From: a virus
Lineage: Duplodnaviria; Caudoviricetes
Length of the DNA: 25,303 bases
Reading direction: 5' to 3' (one strand)
IMG/VR virus record: IMGVR_UViG_3300030372_003555
Coordinates: 1-25,303 of that record
Both the position numbers and the translations under genes were made by a program. This document shows positions 5,171 through 12,812 of the stretch, in pieces. Below the pieces are notes generated by a model. The model saw only the letters and a program-made list of their open reading frames with translations, was not told the DNA's origin and did not search any database. Position 1 is the stretch's first letter. Every line of letters starts with the position of its first letter.

Positions 5171-5623
5171 TTATGTTCCTGGGTCTATTGGTGTCCAGAC
5201 CATAGTTGCGCCTGGAATAATTTCACTCCATGTTATTGCTTGTGCCGTACCTGTAGCAAGCGTTAAAGTACTTCCTGTAGGATCGACATTTGCGTCTCCA
5301 GTTAGTGTAACAGTTCCGCTTGAAATTACAAGAGAGTTCTTTACAGCTGTTATGGTAGCGCCGGCACTGACTGTAACAGTTCCTGTGCCTAAGACTAGTT
5401 CATTTTTGACTGCAGTAAGATTAGAGTCTCCAGTAAGAGTTAAACTTCCAAAACCTAAAGTAAGTGGGTTTGGAGTAGGTATCTCTGTAATGGAGTCTGC
5501 TGTAATACCTGGATTTCCAATACTAATTGTTAGTTCATTTTTAGTAACTGAAAGAGTTACACTATTCTCCGGTCCTGCCGAAGAAATGGGGTATTCTGCA
5601 AATGCGCCAAATCCTAATAACAT
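5171..5623 (-). CDS. Tail-associated structural protein with internal beta repeats, 150 aa
   Basis: Repeated (T/S)xVKNxLxxxxG units; AAGGA RBS. Confidence 0.7.
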   Translation of the reverse strand: MLLGFGAFAEYPISSAGPENSVTLSVTKNELTISIGNPGITADSITEIPTPNPLTLGFGSLTLTGDSNLTAVKNELVLGTGTVTVSAGATITAVKNSLVISSGTVTLTGDANVDPTGSTLTLATGTAQAITWSEIIPGATMVWTPIDPGT

Positions 5624-5641
5624 AAAATATAATCCTTAGAA

Positions 5642-5678
5642 GGAGACAGGGGGTATGTGGTGGATCCCTGCCTCCATC
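5642..5678 (-). ncRNA. Hairpin RNA with C-rich loop (5' leader or antisense-type element)
   Basis: GGAGGCAGGG/CCCUGUCUCC 10-bp stem; one G-U pair forms only on the minus strand; loop AUCCACCACAUACC. Confidence 0.6.
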
Positions 5679-5683
5679 AAAGA

Positions 5684-5692
5684 ATTATATCA
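5684..5692 (-). promoter_or_regulatory. Extended -10 promoter overlapping the TGA stop of the oxygenase gene
   Basis: TG-A-TATAAT is a perfect TGnTATAAT; predicted start about 5677-5678, just before the hairpin. Confidence 0.6.
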
Positions 5693-6346
5693 TCGTTTAA
5701 ACCAAGAAGGAAGACCTAAATGTGGACGTTTGTCGAACATATTATCCTTCGCTCCTGGTGTTTTACGATTGTTATAATGTAGAAAAACTTGAATACATTC
5801 TTTACCTTTAAATTTATCTCTCCAGTGTTCGAGCTCACAACCAGAATAGACCAGCATATCTCCTGGTTTTAAATCTACTCGAACGCCTTTAGTGTTCTCA
5901 GACACATATCCAACACCTTCTTTAACACCACCTTTTGAAGAGTCGGGCTCTAAATATATAGGCCAATCATCTCCTCCTAGATTCATAGTGGTTGAGATTT
6001 CACAACTAAATCTGTCTTTGTGTCTTTTTAAAATATCGCCTTTTTTATAAATCCTTGCATAAGTATAAGCTGGATATAACTTGAGTCCTGTTACCTTTTC
6101 CATTTCTGGTTGACATTTAAGTAATAATGTTTCCATCGCCATATTAGCGTATTGAGAATAAGTGTTAGGAATCTGTTCACCCTCAAGTTCATAGCTTCCT
6201 ATAATATTTTCATAAGGTGAAAGGTATCTTGCTTTTCTACAAGTATCATAAACTTGTTTTTGCATACTAAAATAGTTTGCAACAAAAGCTGCTAGATCTC
6301 TTGATATTGCTTGACGAATGATTGTATACTTTTTCTTTTTAAACAT
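5690..6346 (-). CDS. 2OG-Fe(II) oxygenase superfamily protein, 218 aa
   Basis: HKD (HxD) and distal LEHWR; LKPGDMLVY strand typical of the DSBH fold. Confidence 0.8.
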   Translation of the reverse strand: MFKKKKYTIIRQAISRDLAAFVANYFSMQKQVYDTCRKARYLSPYENIIGSYELEGEQIPNTYSQYANMAMETLLLKCQPEMEKVTGLKLYPAYTYARIYKKGDILKRHKDRFSCEISTTMNLGGDDWPIYLEPDSSKGGVKEGVGYVSENTKGVRVDLKPGDMLVYSGCELEHWRDKFKGKECIQVFLHYNNRKTPGAKDNMFDKRPHLGLPSWFKR

Positions 6347-6977
6347 CTTTAGCCATCTCCTTTAACACTGCGGTTATATTAAAATGAATAAATCTAAATG
6401 GAGCTTTGCCATAATCCAGAGAAAATTCGTGTTCTACATATCCTGGAAAAAATATAAGCATTCCGGGTTGTGGTTTAAAGTGAAGTAGTTCCGTTCCAGG
6501 CCATACACCTTTTAAGTCTGGTTTCATATGTAATTTAGTTGTTCGTGCCCCAGCTCGTGGGTCATAAAAAATAGGTACCGAAGTTTTTTCACTAGCTTTT
6601 AAAAAATAAAAACCATTAACATGAGTGTTCCAATGCACATGCCCTGGATGATAACCTCCGCCTTTTTTAGGAAATTCTTGGACCCACATTTGTTCAAAGA
6701 AAGTTTGATACTTACTCATATCAAATCCTGAGTGATCTAAAAACTCCCAACACTTTTGACCAACATAATTTCTAAAATCCATAAACTGAGTATCACTTAG
6801 TAATTGTGTTGAGTGCCAGGTTTTACCAAAATCACCATGTTCTTTAAGCCATGTTTTAGATTCTTTCATTTTTTTTATTTCTTTAATATAGGGATCGCAG
6901 GCTTTGTTTAAAGATTTAACAAAGTCAGGTTTTATTTCAGTCCATATAGGAGTTGCAAAAAAATTTTGTATATTCAT
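6339..6977 (-). CDS. 2OG-Fe(II) oxygenase (TIGR02466-like), 212 aa
   Basis: FATPIW N-terminus, HPGHVH, FYDPR, GMLIFFPGYVEH, RFIHFN. Confidence 0.8.
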   Translation of the reverse strand: MNIQNFFATPIWTEIKPDFVKSLNKACDPYIKEIKKMKESKTWLKEHGDFGKTWHSTQLLSDTQFMDFRNYVGQKCWEFLDHSGFDMSKYQTFFEQMWVQEFPKKGGGYHPGHVHWNTHVNGFYFLKASEKTSVPIFYDPRAGARTTKLHMKPDLKGVWPGTELLHFKPQPGMLIFFPGYVEHEFSLDYGKAPFRFIHFNITAVLKEMAKDV

Positions 6978-6978
6978 A

Positions 6979-7617
6979 TTATTTAAATGGATTTCCTAAA
7001 TGCCATACGACAAGTGAATATCTAGTTCCTCTCGTTACTGGTTTGACTCTATGCCATAGGTGTGAAGGAAATATTACGATAGAGCCTTTAGGTAATATTT
7101 CCGGTACTTGTCTTACATGTTTACTTTCATCTCTCATATTTGGATCATAGTTTCTAAAATCAAATTCTAATTCTCCACCTGTATATTCGGAGCCATCTGT
7201 TAATTGACAAGTCATAGATAGTTTTCTAACTTTTCCATGATCAGGGGCATTCTTATTTTTTCTATCATAAGGTTTATCCCAAGGATCATTATGCCAATCG
7301 TAATATTGATTAAGTTTATATTTTGTAAACTGACAAGACTCAGAAAAGTCCCATTGAAAATTCCACCCAGCATTTCTATTTGCACTATTAACAAAAGGAT
7401 GTAATTCTTTATATATCCATGTATCATTTAACCACACTAAATCAGATTTTCTTTTTCTTTGGAGGTTCTTAACATCTTCTTTATTTAATTTTTTATCACC
7501 ATAACCACCCGTTTTAGCCATTACTTCCTCTTTAGATAAAGCATATTTAATAACTTCATCACAAAATCTTGGGGTTAATGCAGATTTAAAATACCAAAAA
7601 TAATTATATAAATTCAT
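6979..7617 (-). CDS. 2OG-Fe(II) oxygenase, prolyl-4-hydroxylase/PKHD-like, 212 aa
   Basis: YDWHND, RKLS, Y.GGELEF, FPSHLWHRVKPVTRGTRYSLVVW. Confidence 0.88.
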   Translation of the reverse strand: MNLYNYFWYFKSALTPRFCDEVIKYALSKEEVMAKTGGYGDKKLNKEDVKNLQRKRKSDLVWLNDTWIYKELHPFVNSANRNAGWNFQWDFSESCQFTKYKLNQYYDWHNDPWDKPYDRKNKNAPDHGKVRKLSMTCQLTDGSEYTGGELEFDFRNYDPNMRDESKHVRQVPEILPKGSIVIFPSHLWHRVKPVTRGTRYSLVVWHLGNPFK

Positions 7618-8107
7618 GAGTTGTAGTTAAAATAAAATTTAAAGAATCTTTTTGATTGTTGGTGATGTAATACATCTGTGTAGAGGGAAACATTATAAAT
7701 TTATTGTTTTTTAACGAGATGTCCCAATTTCTTCCTGCTCTTCTGTTTTGATCATAATGTATTCTAACACTACAATCTTTAACATTTACTCCATAAAGAA
7801 AAGTATAATCCGGAGAATTTCTTAAATCTACCGGATCAATATTTAATAAAGGAATTGAAAGTTCTTTGGGTTTATAAGCATTTCCCCACGTTTCTTTGTT
7901 TACTAAAGTAAAACCGTGCTCTAAATTTATATGCTCTCGCACATATGTATTTAACATATCTAATGTTCTTGAAAATGGAAACTCTGAATTTTTAATTTGT
8001 GATGATAAAATATCTGATTGAAGTTTGTCTCGGTTTATTTCAAAACCTTTGGGCATATCTATTGTGCCATAATGTAAATCTATTTCAGATAATACTTTCT
8101 TGTGCAT
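7604..8107 (-). CDS. Degenerate 2OG-Fe(II) oxygenase-fold protein lacking iron ligands, 167 aa
   Basis: WGNAY, YTFLYGV and KFIMFPS pattern retained, but no HxD/HxH and no distal His. Confidence 0.6.
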   Translation of the reverse strand: MHKKVLSEIDLHYGTIDMPKGFEINRDKLQSDILSSQIKNSEFPFSRTLDMLNTYVREHINLEHGFTLVNKETWGNAYKPKELSIPLLNIDPVDLRNSPDYTFLYGVNVKDCSVRIHYDQNRRAGRNWDISLKNNKFIMFPSTQMYYITNNQKDSLNFILTTTHEFI

Positions 8108-8125
8108 ACCACATACCTGTTTAAT

Positions 8126-8575
8126 TTATGCTTTGAGGTCTGTCAAGTCCCAAGACTGTCCGGCTTCATTCCAATTATGAACCCACATATGAGTATTGGC
8201 TTCGTTTTGTGAAGTTTGTTCTGCAGTCAATGCAGGAGCATCACCAATAGGTGATTTCCAACTTGCAGTTGCAGTATCTTTTACCCAAGAAGAATAAGGT
8301 TTTTTAGCCCAAAAGATATTATTATCTTCGTCCCATTCAAAACCTATACCTGCGTAATTACCTCTTAAAGGTGTTCCGCCATTTTTGTGTTGGTTATTGT
8401 AGGTATTGTAGGATGTTTGAATCCACATTTGAGAAGGCCAATTATTATGTCTCTCTAAATATTGTTGTCCTACTGATTCATCTTCAACGCCATCAGCGTT
8501 CAGCATATCTTTATTATCTAAAGTTAATACTGATATAACTTTACTGTTAGCTCCTATTTTTGCAAAGTGTGCCAT
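8126..8575 (-). CDS. Fibre-associated protein (MAHFA-type; possible chaperone or tip protein), 149 aa
   Basis: AAGGAG RBS; WIQTSYN...RGNYAGIG...P(Y)SSW motifs; directly follows the Gly-rich fibres. Confidence 0.7.
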   Translation of the reverse strand: MAHFAKIGANSKVISVLTLDNKDMLNADGVEDESVGQQYLERHNNWPSQMWIQTSYNTYNNQHKNGGTPLRGNYAGIGFEWDEDNNIFWAKKPYSSWVKDTATASWKSPIGDAPALTAEQTSQNEANTHMWVHNWNEAGQSWDLTDLKA

Positions 8576-8624: not shown

Positions 8625-10028
8625 TTATTGATATTTATACCTTATTATTACGATTCCTGAACCACCTGCCGCACCCGCTATACCTGGATCGCCACCACCG
8701 CCACCGCCACCACCAGTGTTAGTTCCTCCTGCTACTGCAGCGCCTGGTTTTCCACCAGCACCACCTCCGCCAGTTCCACCAGCACCTGGTCCTCTAGGAC
8801 CTGCATTATGTCCACCACCTCCACCGCCGCCAGCGTAAGCTGTTGGAGTAGCATTAATACTTGTTGTTGCACCAGCACCACCTACACCTCCAGGTGTGCT
8901 AGGAGGAGCGGGTTGTGCTACGTCTGCTGCCGCAGCTGTTGCTCCACCACCTCCACCACCTAACATATAAGTAGTTGTATCTGAAGATCCTTTTCCACCA
9001 TTATTTCCTTGAGGAGGACTTACTGGAGGAGTATTTCCTGTTCCACCAGGTCTTCCAGCTGGAGGAGCGTTTGGATTACTTACTCCACCTCCACCACCAG
9101 ATCCACCGGGTTTTCCAGTAGCTACACAAATTGGAACAGCACCGGGACCACCTGCTCCACCACCGCCAGCTGTAGCTGTTATTGATGAAAAAATTGAATC
9201 ATTTCCACTAGTTCCTCGAGAATCTGGACTAGGACTTGCAGGATGACCTGCTCCTCCTCCGCCTACTGTTATAGGATAACCTGTTGCTGTAACGGGTACA
9301 CCTGTTGGTGCTCTTAATGGAGATCCTGTATAAGAATCATTTAAACCTAAACCTTCTCTAAAACCACCTGCACCTCCTCCAGCTACGGCATCATTCCCAC
9401 CACCACCGCCACCACCAGCGACTACTAAATAAGAAACTGTGTTTGAACCTGCTGCATTACCTGCACAAGAAACTGTAAAAGTTCCAGGACCTGTAAAAGT
9501 ATGAATTTTAAAATTACCACAAGTGGCAGTAGTGTTTCCACCTGATGCGGCTATATATTTTATTTCTGCTATTGGATCAGCATTATCATTAACTGGAAGC
9601 CAACCTTGTGTTGAATCTACATACACTAAAGTTTTTGATTCTCTATTTATAATCATTTGTGCATCTAGTTCAAAACCTTCTATTTTAGAACTATTTCTAC
9701 CAATGGTTAAAGTATCACTAGCAAAATTTCCTGTATAATCTGCAAAAGCAACTATGTCTCCAGCACTTGGTGATGCTGGCAATGTAGCTGTAAATGCTCC
9801 ACCATCTGTATTACAAAAATAACCATTTCCACTTACTGCTGTAAATCCTGTTGTTTTAATTGAACCTGTCTGCCAGTCTACAGTTCCTGTTCTACCAAAT
9901 CCTGTTTGTGTTCCATTGTTTGTAATTGTTGCACCAGAAGGAATAACAAAAGAATCTCCACTATCTCCTAATGTAACAGTACCACAATTGGTTCTTGGAC
10001 TAATTTTATTTACTTTAACTTCACTCAT
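8625..10028 (-). CDS. Glycine-rich tail fibre/receptor-binding protein 3, 467 aa
   Basis: GFGRTGTVDW, KIHTFTGPGTF, YLVVAGGGGG, C-terminal GGSGIVIIRY. Confidence 0.8.
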   Translation of the reverse strand: MSEVKVNKISPRTNCGTVTLGDSGDSFVIPSGATITNNGTQTGFGRTGTVDWQTGSIKTTGFTAVSGNGYFCNTDGGAFTATLPASPSAGDIVAFADYTGNFASDTLTIGRNSSKIEGFELDAQMIINRESKTLVYVDSTQGWLPVNDNADPIAEIKYIAASGGNTTATCGNFKIHTFTGPGTFTVSCAGNAAGSNTVSYLVVAGGGGGGGNDAVAGGGAGGFREGLGLNDSYTGSPLRAPTGVPVTATGYPITVGGGGAGHPASPSPDSRGTSGNDSIFSSITATAGGGGAGGPGAVPICVATGKPGGSGGGGGVSNPNAPPAGRPGGTGNTPPVSPPQGNNGGKGSSDTTTYMLGGGGGGATAAAADVAQPAPPSTPGGVGGAGATTSINATPTAYAGGGGGGGHNAGPRGPGAGGTGGGGAGGKPGAAVAGGTNTGGGGGGGGDPGIAGAAGGSGIVIIRYKYQ

Positions 10029-10030
10029 AA

Positions 10031-11398
10031 TTACGCTTTTCTATATCTAATTATAACTGCACCTGCCTCAGAAACTGCCTGTGGTTGTGGACTTCCTGGA
10101 AAAGTTCCTCCAGAACCATGACCATAACCTGATCCTCTATTAGGGGCATTTGCATCATTTCCACCTTCACCATCACCTCCAGTTGCATATACCACTGTTG
10201 ATCCATTAATAGCACTTGGTGTACCATTTCCTGGGTGAGCAGATGTACAAGTCACAGGGCCACCACTACCAGCTCCACCACCAGAACCTGAATTTTCTCC
10301 TGCTGCTCCTCTAAAACCTGGATTACCTTGTGGAGGACTTACAGGTGGGGTATTACCCGCTCCACCATCAGTTGGTCCATAGTCACTTCCTCCGCCACCA
10401 GATCCACCGGCTACTCCTGGATTAGGTCTGTGATTACCTTCTCCTCCTCCAGCAGATGTTTTACAATTAAATACACTTGCACTTCCATTAACAGTTCCAC
10501 CAGCTGCCCCAACTGTTACGGGATAACCTGTTGCAGTGACTGTAAGACCAGTACAAGCTGAAGCTAACGGAGAAGCTGTATAACAACCTCCTCCAGGGTT
10601 GGGTGCTTTAAATTCTCTAAAACCTCCGGCTCCACCACCACCTGGTCCTGCTCCTCCAGAACTTTTTCCACCGCCTCCTGCTATTACCATATAAGAAATT
10701 GTATTATTTGCTGGTGCGGTAGCTAAAGCTGATACACAAAAAGTACCTGGGCCTGTAAATGTATGAATTTTAAAATCTCCTGAGCAAGTAATTGTTCCGC
10801 CTGTCGCTGTAATAAAATTTTCAATTCCACTTGGACTTGATGTTACCGATTGTTCTGTTGTTAACCATCCTTGAGTAGTGTCTACATAAACTAAAAGAAC
10901 GGAACCACCTTCTGCTGATAAAGTTGGATCTTGATCATTACCACCACCAATTTTTTCTGAACCATTTGGATTTAAAGTAACTGCATTACTATCCCAAGTA
11001 TTTGCATAATCTTTTAAACCTATAATGTCTCCAGCAGTTCCTGCTGGTAAATTAACTGTTACTGCTCCACCTGTAGTATTAACAAAATATCCTTTACCTG
11101 CTGCTGGAATAAATGCTGCTGTTTTAATATCGCCTGTTTGCCAATCAACAGTTCCTGTACGACCGAATCCTGTTTGAGAAGCACCAGATGCTAAAGAAAT
11201 TGTATCTCCTGAAGCTCCTAAAGTAATTGTAGTTCCACATTGACTAATTAAATTTCCACCATCTGAAGCTTGTAAATTGTTTCCGGCACTTCTAATGTTA
11301 TCAGAAGCCGCACCTATATTAACTGTTGTGCCACACTTATTAACTACATTAGTGCCCGGTTGATTTTGTACGTTGTCTACTTTTATTGTTGATGCCAT
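10031..11398 (-). CDS. Glycine-rich tail fibre/receptor-binding protein 2, 455 aa
   Basis: Same architecture; C-terminal AGAVIIRY. Confidence 0.8.
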   Translation of the reverse strand: MASTIKVDNVQNQPGTNVVNKCGTTVNIGAASDNIRSAGNNLQASDGGNLISQCGTTITLGASGDTISLASGASQTGFGRTGTVDWQTGDIKTAAFIPAAGKGYFVNTTGGAVTVNLPAGTAGDIIGLKDYANTWDSNAVTLNPNGSEKIGGGNDQDPTLSAEGGSVLLVYVDTTQGWLTTEQSVTSSPSGIENFITATGGTITCSGDFKIHTFTGPGTFCVSALATAPANNTISYMVIAGGGGKSSGGAGPGGGGAGGFREFKAPNPGGGCYTASPLASACTGLTVTATGYPVTVGAAGGTVNGSASVFNCKTSAGGGEGNHRPNPGVAGGSGGGGSDYGPTDGGAGNTPPVSPPQGNPGFRGAAGENSGSGGGAGSGGPVTCTSAHPGNGTPSAINGSTVVYATGGDGEGGNDANAPNRGSGYGHGSGGTFPGSPQPQAVSEAGAVIIRYRKA

Positions 11399-11417
11399 AA
11401 TTCTATATTACCATGCT

Positions 11418-12812
11418 TTATTTATATTTGTACCTTATTATTACTATTCCTGAACCACCCGCACCTCCAGTATAAGTACCAGGAGATTGCGCTCTATTAC
11501 CACCGCCGCCACCTCCAGTATTAGTTGTTCCAGCATTTCCTGTAGCAGGTCCTAGACCTGATCTAGTTCCTGCACCGCCAGTTCCACAAGGACTAGCTGC
11601 ACCACCACAAACTGGATTATCTCCTCCACCTCCTCCGCCACCACCTGCATAAGAAACTGCACTTCCTGAAATAGTAGATGGTGTTCCAGCACCACCTCTA
11701 CCAATAGATGTTGTTCCTGCGTTTTCTCCAACTTCTGATGCTCCACCTCCACCACCATTGGTATAATTAGGGGCAGCAGGTCCACCGTCTCCACCATCTG
11801 TTCCTTGTGCTGGAGTTGTGGAAGGAGTATTTCCTGAACCACCTGGTGATGGATCATAACTACCACCTCCGCCAGATCCTCCATCAGCACCGGCTCCACT
11901 TTCAGTTCCTCCGCCACCACCTCCAGCAGAACTTATTGTTGAAAAAGTTGAAACTGCTCCTGTTCCACCTTGATAAGGACCAGTTGGAAAAGGACCTCCT
12001 GTACCTCCTGCACCTACTGCAATTGGATAACCAGTAGCTGTTACTGTAATTCTATTGGGTGCTGAAGGGTATCCGTCTAACGGACTTGCTGTGTAAGGTG
12101 TTACAGGAGATTTTAATTCTCTATATCCACCAGCACCTCCGCCACCACCATAACTTCCACCGCCGCCACCACCACCAGCAATTACCATATATGAAACTAA
12201 ATTATTTGCTGCACAAATTGCGGCAGTAGAAACAGTAAAAGTTCCTGGTCCTGTAAATTTATGAATTTTGTCATTACCACAAGTAGTTATTGTACCACCA
12301 GTTGCTATTAGATAAGGATTACCTCTTACATTTGATGTTGAATCCATAGTATTAATCCAACCTTGTGTTGAATCTATATAAACAAGAGTTACTGATTGAC
12401 CTTCTGTACTTAAAGTTACATTTGCATTTGTTCCACCAATCTTTTCAGTTCCATTTGGTGAAATAGTAAAATTATTATCATCCCAAGTTGCTGCATAATC
12501 TGCAAAGGAAACTATTGATCCAGCAGAACCTGCTGGTAAATTTGCTGTAATTGTTCCAGCTGTAGTATTTACAAAGTAACCTTTTCCAGTTGCAGCAGTT
12601 ATTGTTGATGTTTGAACTGTTGTAACCCAATCTACCGTTCCTGTTCTACCGAAACCAGATTGAGTTGCTCCTGAAGCTAGTGTAACTGTTCCACCGCAAC
12701 GACCTAAAGTTAATGTCGTTGCATCTACGGTTACAGTTTTACTTGCTCCACCACCAACTGTTAAAGTTGTTCCACATTGTTGTTCAATTGCATCTACTTG
12801 TACTTTACTCAT
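11418..12812 (-). CDS. Glycine-rich tail fibre/receptor-binding protein 1, 464 aa
   Basis: Same architecture; C-terminal GGSGIVIIRY. Confidence 0.8.
   Translation of the reverse strand: MSKVQVDAIEQQCGTTLTVGGGASKTVTVDATTLTLGRCGGTVTLASGATQSGFGRTGTVDWVTTVQTSTITAATGKGYFVNTTAGTITANLPAGSAGSIVSFADYAATWDDNNFTISPNGTEKIGGTNANVTLSTEGQSVTLVYIDSTQGWINTMDSTSNVRGNPYLIATGGTITTCGNDKIHKFTGPGTFTVSTAAICAANNLVSYMVIAGGGGGGGSYGGGGGAGGYRELKSPVTPYTASPLDGYPSAPNRITVTATGYPIAVGAGGTGGPFPTGPYQGGTGAVSTFSTISSAGGGGGGTESGAGADGGSGGGGSYDPSPGGSGNTPSTTPAQGTDGGDGGPAAPNYTNGGGGGASEVGENAGTTSIGRGGAGTPSTISGSAVSYAGGGGGGGGDNPVCGGAASPCGTGGAGTRSGLGPATGNAGTTNTGGGGGGNRAQSPGTYTGGAGGSGIVIIRYKYK

Follow-up and report, generated by a model that had tools for sequence, protein, structure and literature searches.

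A conserved hairpin with a fixed CACCA loop at the edge of an oxygenase island in HTVC023P-type pelagiphages, and its possible pairing with the start of the first island gene

INTRODUCTION

In RsaE a C-rich loop seeds on a G-rich initiation region, and in hok/sok fold-back inhibition an element at the 3′ end of the mRNA pairs with the 5′ initiation region of the same mRNA. The staphylococcal RNAIII, as described in PMC4615179, likewise has an unpaired C-rich loop placed to seed pairing with a G-rich initiation region; the same source describes the cuckoo RNAs of Alphaproteobacteria (RSs0680/CcsR, SmelA075, SmelA099 and C14), whose stems vary and compensate around an unchanging C-rich loop built of tandem CCN units and which are proposed to cover ribosome-binding sites. 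In phage T4, according to the account in PMC3014915 of genes e, soc, 49 and I-TevI, a promoter is located in the DNA of the 5′ arm of a stem that masks the Shine-Dalgarno (SD) sequence only in read-through RNA. Here we consider a hairpin that shares traits with all of these. It lies in a stretch of viral DNA of 25 303 nucleotides (nt) (IMG/VR record IMGVR_UViG_3300030372_003555), hereafter the window, which is a 25.3-kb piece of an HTVC023P-type pelagiphage; its capsid protein is 81% identical to that of HTVC027P by protein comparison. The hairpin stands behind an island of four packed genes, g1-g4 (8107-5690, minus strand), and before g5, the first gene of a structural block.

By sequence comparison the hairpin is a real, conserved structured phage RNA element, with a co-varying stem, a sense-strand bias, a fixed loop and, in the clade of the window, complementarity between the loop and the start of g1. 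Riboregulation of the island is plausible, and we tentatively favour a reading in which the outer stem of the hairpin would gate g5 while its loop would mask the start of the first island gene. The features on which the argument turns are as follows.

5629..5688, minus strand: full hairpin, with an outer 12-pair AU-rich stem and an inner GC-rich stem
5642..5675, minus strand: inner stem-loop, a 10-bp stem (5675-5666/5651-5642) with a 14-nt loop, then a short U tract
5652..5665, minus strand: loop AUCCACCACAUACC, with the universal core CACCA
5633..5637, minus strand: SD sequence AAGGA of g5, within the outer stem's 3′ arm
5684..5689, minus strand: -10 box TATAAT of the predicted promoter P2, doubling as 5′ arm of the outer stem; start predicted near A5677
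8105..8117, minus strand: target GGTATGTGGT with the start codon of g1, to which the loop could pair in either of two registers, -10..-1 (10 bp) or -3..+3 (6 bp, GGU-AUG)
8118..8146, minus strand: P1, a predicted sigma70 promoter with -35 TTGACA (8146-8141), 17 nt, and -10 TAAACA (8123-8118, no -7T)

Like the cuckoo RNAs, the hairpin has variable stems with compensating changes and a C-rich loop of fixed sequence, again with tandem CCN units, in an alphaproteobacterial setting. Unlike the cuckoo RNAs as described, it carries CACCA/CCACCAC and not CCUCCUCCC, so it is not an anti-SD loop; there is one hairpin in the window, in 023Pt_psg01 and in HTVC023P where cuckoo RNAs have two to four adjacent ones; and it is phage-borne, with a candidate target in the same genome and no Rfam match. 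RNAIII and RsaE differ from it in their UCCC-type motif, which the pelagiphage hairpin lacks, and it is a single hairpin of ∼40-60 nt whose transcript and action in trans are putative; complementarity of their type between loop and initiation region is found in 115/127 loci of the clade whose islands begin with g1 and in 1/44 of a distant clade whose islands begin with g2. Masking of the T4 type is what we predict for g5 and also for g1 in some relatives, with sigma70-type boxes in place of the gp55 late promoters of T4; a conserved loop directed at a distant gene is not part of the T4 examples as described. If the loop-to-start pairing is in cis, the model resembles hok/sok, except that the distance here is ∼2.4 kb across four genes and no toxin or antisense Sok-like RNA was identified.

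The hairpin is apparently undescribed. We found no description of it in the literature; the viral structured-RNA alignments of Fremin et al. 2023 (PMC10690425) were not compared and may list it unnamed, e.g. among Pelagibacteraceae-phage entries. The co-located 2OG-Fe(II) oxygenase and 'ferrochelatase' gene cluster of HTVC023P-type pelagiphages that is already published (PMC9599517) is the same island; the main text of that paper does not describe the RNA element, and the words promoter, noncoding and hairpin do not occur in it.

RESULTS

A structured RNA element with a fixed loop

The sequence-only reading had described a 10-bp hairpin at this site. The inner 10-bp stem with its 14-nt loop does fold (-18.4 kcal/mol, z-score -3.25), but it is part of a longer structure: the 81-nt region forms one long stem from ∼5690 to 5627 (-31.5 kcal/mol, z-score -5.64) in which TATAAT, in the 5′ arm of the outer stem, pairs with an AUUAUA located after the AAGGA of g5.

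Among homologues retrieved by protein similarity to g1 or g4, the hairpin is present in 110 of the 114 readable loci (116 loci show the g4 end, 2 of them are too short, and some contigs are counted twice). When all loci are taken, a hairpin with CCAC in its loop is seen at 253 of 299 distinct g4 ends, a count biased by the retrieval of many loci through the loop pattern itself. CACCA lies in or at the edge of the loop in 253/253 of these hairpins, AUACC is found in 188 and a G in only 2; our detector required CCAC in the loop and missed an AU-rich variant (locus L051). The stem co-varies: over 65 distinct sequences 20 pairs are 91.7% paired, with two-sided changes at 15 of them, a value reached by 0/500 shuffles, while slid controls gave 48-59%. 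Of 157 distinct hairpins, 139 fold better as the sense strand (308 G-U pairs), as expected of an RNA element. The most conserved part of the hairpin is the loop (11-14 nt), and in a distant clade, related to HTVC033P, the same loop core sits on stems that are wholly different.

The hairpin keeps the downstream edge of the island even when the preceding or the following gene is replaced. It is single-copy in the window, in 023Pt_psg01 and in HTVC023P; no extra hairpin was found at intergenic sense positions in these three, and HTVC023P has two opposite-strand stems. The hairpin was not found in the stretches examined from HTVC008M, Mosig, AG-345-E08, HTVC033P and HTVC027P. Two loci, L530 and L540, have near-identical g1 proteins and identical leaders, with the hairpin in L540 only; this contrast is a recent gain or loss, so the hairpin is dispensable.

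A covariance-model search with Rfam 15 returned no family at 5620-5700 and two chance matches elsewhere in the window (E-value ∼0.65). A long imperfect stem at the end of a gene block could mainly be a 3′-end signal of the oxygenase mRNA (a weak terminator, an exonuclease block or an RNase III site) that would in addition control access to the ribosome-binding site downstream, with the loop secondary. We consider this unlikely. It would agree with the position of the hairpin, always behind the last island gene whichever gene that is, with ∼20 pairs including an internal mismatch, with 2-5 U after the inner stem in 131 of 158 distinct hairpins, and with the distant clade, where the hairpin often precedes U-rich sequence and a second promoter-like site. 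However, the terminator scan does not call the hairpin. Where an intrinsic terminator has a GC stem, a loop of 3-8 nt and at least five U, the window has a 14-nt loop and a UUCU tail, and a 5-U run occurs in 1 of the 158 hairpins. The conservation is highest in the loop, and neither terminators nor RNase III stems are known to require a fixed loop of 11-14 nt.

A leader-peptide attenuator was considered and rejected. A 13-codon open reading frame (ORF) with His codons, MEAGIHHIPPVSF, can be read from 5677; its frame is not conserved, as indels shift the loop through all three frames and L212, L241 and L515 have lost the ATG. We also observed that the 3′ arm together with the SD sequence, CTCCTTCTAAGGAT (5645-5632, minus strand; also L687), is nearly identical to the host pre-16S 3′ end, CTCCTTTCTAAGGAT. 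Similar 3′ arms occur in 150/253 hairpins and are absent from the distant clade; the resemblance is probably a by-product of the GGAG/CUCC pairing, the U tract and the SD sequence.

Complementarity of the loop to the start of the first gene

As the sequence-only reading had stated, GGTATGTGGT at 8117-8108 (minus strand) abuts the ATG at 8107, its complement lies in the loop at 5661-5652, and the window has no further exact copy. No start in the window pairs better with the loop than the one at 8107 (-16.2 kcal/mol; the next reaches -9.2), and GGT stands directly before ATG at 1 of the 38 window starts. Only 5 of 3000 shuffled loops gave a perfect complement of at least 10 nt within -20..+15 of any of these 38 starts, a figure to be read as post-hoc. 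Co-folding of the whole hairpin with the target gave no binding; the method cannot form loop-to-strand pairings, and its result is uninformative.

Among 127 distinct hairpin loci with g1 first, the g1 start is the best loop partner in 115, where 15.6 would be expected (median -15.0 versus -3.2); since the loci are related, the count represents one inherited state and not 115 events. In the 157 loci with both ends visible, loop variant A occurs with the 10-mer (34 loci), with the leader GTGGTGGT (54) and with other leaders (17), while loop B occurs with GTGGTGGT (22) and other leaders (20) and never with the 10-mer. Loop C goes with the leader GTTGGTGGC in 4/4 loci with visible g1, HTVC023P among them, through a C-G to A-U change in the pairing register. 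The 10-mer would pair poorly with loops B and C (-12.3 and -10.9 versus -20.2), and it is seen with neither (0/42 and 0/4). In one locus (L604) loop A and the 10-mer reappear together inside the loop-B clade, and on the g1 tree, a quick tree with 65/126 forks open, the 10-mer and GTGGTGGT leaders interchange repeatedly, both fitting loop A in different registers. Covariation of loop and target, which the sequence-only reading had proposed as a check, is not seen base by base: loop A stands opposite all three kinds of leader.

GGT-ATG is found in 143/148 loci with an AUACC loop and in 2/9 without AUACC or without the loop (locus L442 was moved between these groups; before, the counts were 142/147 and 3/10), and AUACC and GGT-ATG have been lost jointly in about four separate lineages (loop C, L749, L051 and L144). 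Where the first gene is not g1, a G/U-rich start is kept in 11 of 14 hand-picked loci; in L193, L455, L425, L749 and the L589 type a G/U tract is found among the first codons or past the predicted transcription start site. Where pairing of a leader with the loop is weak, its local hairpin tends to be stronger (median -9.7 versus -3.6 and -4.0; rho -0.50, n=151 non-independent leaders) and to cover the -10 box and the SD sequence; one class of these hairpins uses the same AUACC-GGUAU pairing.

We noted in addition that a 9-codon ORF (8114-8085, minus strand) begins at an out-of-frame AUG within the 10-mer and overlaps the start of g1. An upstream AUG is frequent in the GTGGTGGT leader class too, and not in the other classes.

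Predicted promoters and masking of Shine-Dalgarno sequences

Two features had escaped the sequence-only reading: the TATAAT lies within an outer stem that would mask an SD sequence, and P1 ends at the target 10-mer. A TTGACA-like hexamer is located 38-40 nt before the ATG in 143/151 distinct g1 starts, intergenic cases included, and -10 boxes without -7T are common in alphaproteobacteria according to PMC7703639. The -10 box of P1 ends exactly where the 10-mer begins, and the 10-mer spans about -6..+4 of P1. The predicted P1 transcript would have a leader of 3-5 nt and about six of the target bases, leaving the loop to pair only via GGU-AUG (-7.0 to -7.7 kcal/mol), while read-through RNA from the tail genes would offer all ten (-16 kcal/mol). 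Pairing through the whole 10-mer is not supported for the island's own transcript, as most of it would lie upstream of the predicted P1 start site. Read-through is to be expected: the stop of g0, the gene before g1, is 18 nt from the g1 start, the terminator scan reports no terminator-like site between them, and transcripts from upstream would therefore continue into the island. The statement that g1 has no canonical SD sequence holds only in part, since an AGGU could pair with the host 16S tail.

At the other end of the island, the sequence-only reading had seen a perfect extended -10 box. TATAAT is present and conserved, following the g4 stop in 107/190 homologues with TAT-led variants in nearly all others; the TG, however, belongs to the TGA stop of g4, and since TAG or TAA is the stop in 16/190 homologues it cannot count as separate evidence of a promoter. 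A promoter before the hairpin remains plausible on other grounds. Relatives with a different last gene (L173 type) have TTGATA-16-TATAAT, the only type with a clear -35 box, and several hairpin-less relatives retain TATAAT just before the structural gene. Because TATAAT is conserved, also in these hairpin-less relatives, P2 likely serves the downstream genes, with the inner hairpin as a leader. In four hairpin-less relatives (L543, L565, L578 and L580) we observed TATAAT only 8 nt before the ATG of the structural gene, which predicts a near-leaderless mRNA.

According to folding predictions the outer stem forms only on RNA that starts upstream of the P2 start, while the loop is exposed in both forms. 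For the g5 SD sequence of the window, the predicted probability of being unpaired rises from 0.07 on read-through RNA to 0.43 when the RNA starts at 5677; among homologues the medians are 0.01 for read-through and 0.61 for the P2 start, the latter form having the higher value in 99/102. The outer stem is thus predicted to mask the SD sequence of g5 in read-through RNA, in the way known from T4 e and soc. In relatives of the L088, L101, L110 and L116-L134 type we found a local hairpin over the P1 -10 box together with a canonical AAGGA SD upstream of g1, a predicted second masking structure of the T4 e-like kind.

As a separate observation, a TATAAT is read on the opposite strand of the outer stem's 3′ arm (5628-5633, plus strand). 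This is not conserved in all homologues; it could drive an antisense RNA through the hairpin into g4.

Contrary data and other candidate partners of the loop

Several observations weigh against pairing of the loop with the first-gene start. The exact 10-mer is found in only 34/157 loci, as one allele among several that vary while the loop stays unchanged. In the distant g2-first clade, 36/45 hairpin-bearing loci have no GTGGT in the leader, 1/17 hairpin-less loci has it, the first gene is the best loop partner within -15..+12 in 1/44 loci (7.3 expected), and these islands offer only Gly-Gly codon matches, hairpin present or not. In loci L219, L474, L487, L459, L421 and L486 loop A or B is retained although the start is not complementary to it, and conversely GGT-ATG occurs without a hairpin in L530, L643 and L654. 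The loop-C leader pairs with loop A as well as with loop C (-14.7/-15.1 versus -12.3/-15.1), and loop C is one lineage. G runs stand just after the -10 box at three other promoter-like sites of HTVC023P, so that G-richness may be a promoter feature. Finally, the oxygenase RNA of HTVC027P is listed as 'late', like that of the tail genes (PMC12753301, Table S3); a need to separate the timing of oxygenases and tail is therefore not demonstrated, HTVC027P being hairpin-less in the stretch scanned.

Several of these data suit a different reading, which ranks close behind the one we favour and to which we give about one chance in three: at the loop a host or phage protein (or an unseen RNA) would bind and act on the structural operon downstream through its leader, the G/U-rich start would be a promoter discriminator or short-leader feature, and the match between them would be a by-product of low-complexity (CCA)n/(GGU)n sequence. 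In its favour, CACCA is universal among the loops where the AUACC half is not, the distant clade retains the loop without a complementary leader, the 10-mer sits at the P1 start site with G runs behind other -10 boxes as well, and GGT-ATG can occur without the hairpin. It leaves unexplained the joint loss of AUACC and GGT-ATG, the loop-C leader, and the G/U tracts that lie past the start site or in the first codons (L425, L749, L455), and no conserved host complement was found in a 12-mer search of 201 Pelagibacteraceae genomes in which shorter targets were not searched. The two readings are non-exclusive; the CACCA loop may be older, with AUACC added to it later in one clade.

Other RNA partners were tried and rejected. 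In the 12-mer search, a long host target appeared in 3 of the 201 incomplete genomes (one being the phage itself and two coding) against ∼28 control matches. Exact 10-mers outside phage contigs in three host single-cell genomes were coding. In the 16S-spacer-23S stretch of one host genome the best site reached -12 kcal/mol, and no site fits all loop variants above background. In the complete 023Pt_psg01 genome the best other targets are 9-mers, mostly Gly-codon runs in glycine-rich genes.

The claim of a riboregulator is thereby narrowed. The conserved, strand-specific hairpin and its fixed C-rich loop are upheld, as is, in the clade of the window, the first island start as best partner; but some relatives keep the loop where no complement exists at the first start, which is therefore no more than a candidate partner.

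Genes of the island and its surroundings

HTVC023P-type pelagiphages are abundant ocean phages of SAR11 bacteria, and near-copies of the island are present on contigs of Pelagibacteraceae single-cell genomes. The minus-strand order is three glycine-rich genes, g0, the packed g1-g4 and then tail and structural genes:

8126..8575, minus strand: g0, conserved 149-residue gene (phrog_7759) that marks the upstream edge of the island
7604..8107, minus strand: g1, 167 residues, first island gene, with a putative oxygenase-like beta-strand core without HxD...H ligands
6979..7617, minus strand: g2, 2OG-Fe(II) oxygenase (PF13640), overlapping the g1 stop, no SD
6339..6977, minus strand: g3, 2OG-Fe(II) oxygenase (PF13759), starting 1 nt past the g2 stop
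5690..6346, minus strand: g4, phrog_2954, an oxygenase-type gene annotated 'ferrochelatase', 83% identical to HTVC023P gp67
5171..5623, minus strand: g5, which opens the structural block downstream of the island; relatives have other genes in its place

The island had been called a four-gene oxygenase cassette. Three recognisable oxygenases are present, but g1 has no Pfam, PHROG or PDB sequence match. Its sole lead is an Atlas feature match of 0.94 to a cluster with PF13759 on 19% of its members. The structure model of g1 (predicted local distance difference test score 68) has two helices and six C-terminal strands, and the HxD/E...H iron triad is not found, there being no invariant His across 29 aligned g1 proteins. 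We regard g1 as likely an inactive oxygenase-like protein; as such it could serve as a chaperone or RNA binder. The 29 homologues share an invariant NRRxGRxW motif (within 7604-8107).

Neither g2 nor g3 has a usable SD sequence, and both starts adjoin the stop of the preceding gene. The three Gly/Pro-rich genes upstream (8625-12812) are candidate oxygenase substrates; their many GGUGGUGG codon runs are the next-best loop complements in the window.

In five loci (L415, L457, L416, L454 and L490) new oxygenase-like genes stand directly behind the P1 leader, with g1 displaced downstream. Some of the inserted genes keep the first codons of g1, and in L454 and L490 the displaced g1 again starts GTGGT-ATG. 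This suggests that gene insertion occurs at the promoter-proximal end of the island.

Such insertions bear on the idea that the pair of 10-mers works at the level of DNA, as inverted operators or recombination ends around a mobile cassette. Both ends of the island are conserved while its gene content varies, and new genes enter right behind the leader with first codons kept (L415, L457, L416, L454), as this idea would have it. Yet the downstream copy lies in a co-varying stem with many G-U pairs of which one strand folds better, the upstream copy varies while the loop does not, and the orientation of the cassette relative to g0 and the downstream genes is constant among the loci examined. We disfavour DNA sites and regard them as very improbable.

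DISCUSSION

In the riboregulatory reading, on which we would not stake even odds, the hairpin would be a bifunctional RNA element at the junction of the variable oxygenase island and the structural genes. On read-through transcripts its outer stem would hide the ribosome-binding site of the next gene. The CACCA loop, which is fixed, would pair with the G/U-rich start of whichever gene heads the island and so damp translation of that gene. Full 10-bp pairing would be possible only on long transcripts entering from the upstream tail genes, RNA born at P1 offering only GGU-AUG (about -7 kcal/mol), and the loop would therefore mainly mute the island on read-through RNA. Muting of the first gene would likely lower the whole island, because g2 and g3 lack usable SD sequences and abut the preceding stops. 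Relatives in which the loop would pair weakly often have a local hairpin over the same start instead. The hairpin RNA could act in cis, looping out the cassette, or in trans, and both versions fit the comparison. Both promoters, P1 and P2, are inferred, and so are the occurrence of the hairpin as free or exposed RNA, its pairing with the start and the repressive effect of that pairing.

One could speculate further, and with more doubt, that two fixed RNA modules bracket a hypervariable island, a G/U-rich start at its entry and the CACCA hairpin at its exit. The loop would then pair with whichever gene is first and form a content-independent switch for a coupled island, telling read-through transcripts from near-leaderless ones born at the promoter.

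For an island of enzymes without known substrates, the analysis predicts two promoters and an mRNA that is nearly leaderless. If pairing of the loop with the start is false, a loop kept across unrelated stems still indicates an RNA-binding partner. If it is true, it would show how a phage keeps control of an island whose genes are constantly exchanged. The presence of such a short hairpin with a fixed loop in the cultured HTVC023P, which has its own variant of loop and leader, makes riboregulation in SAR11 phages directly testable.

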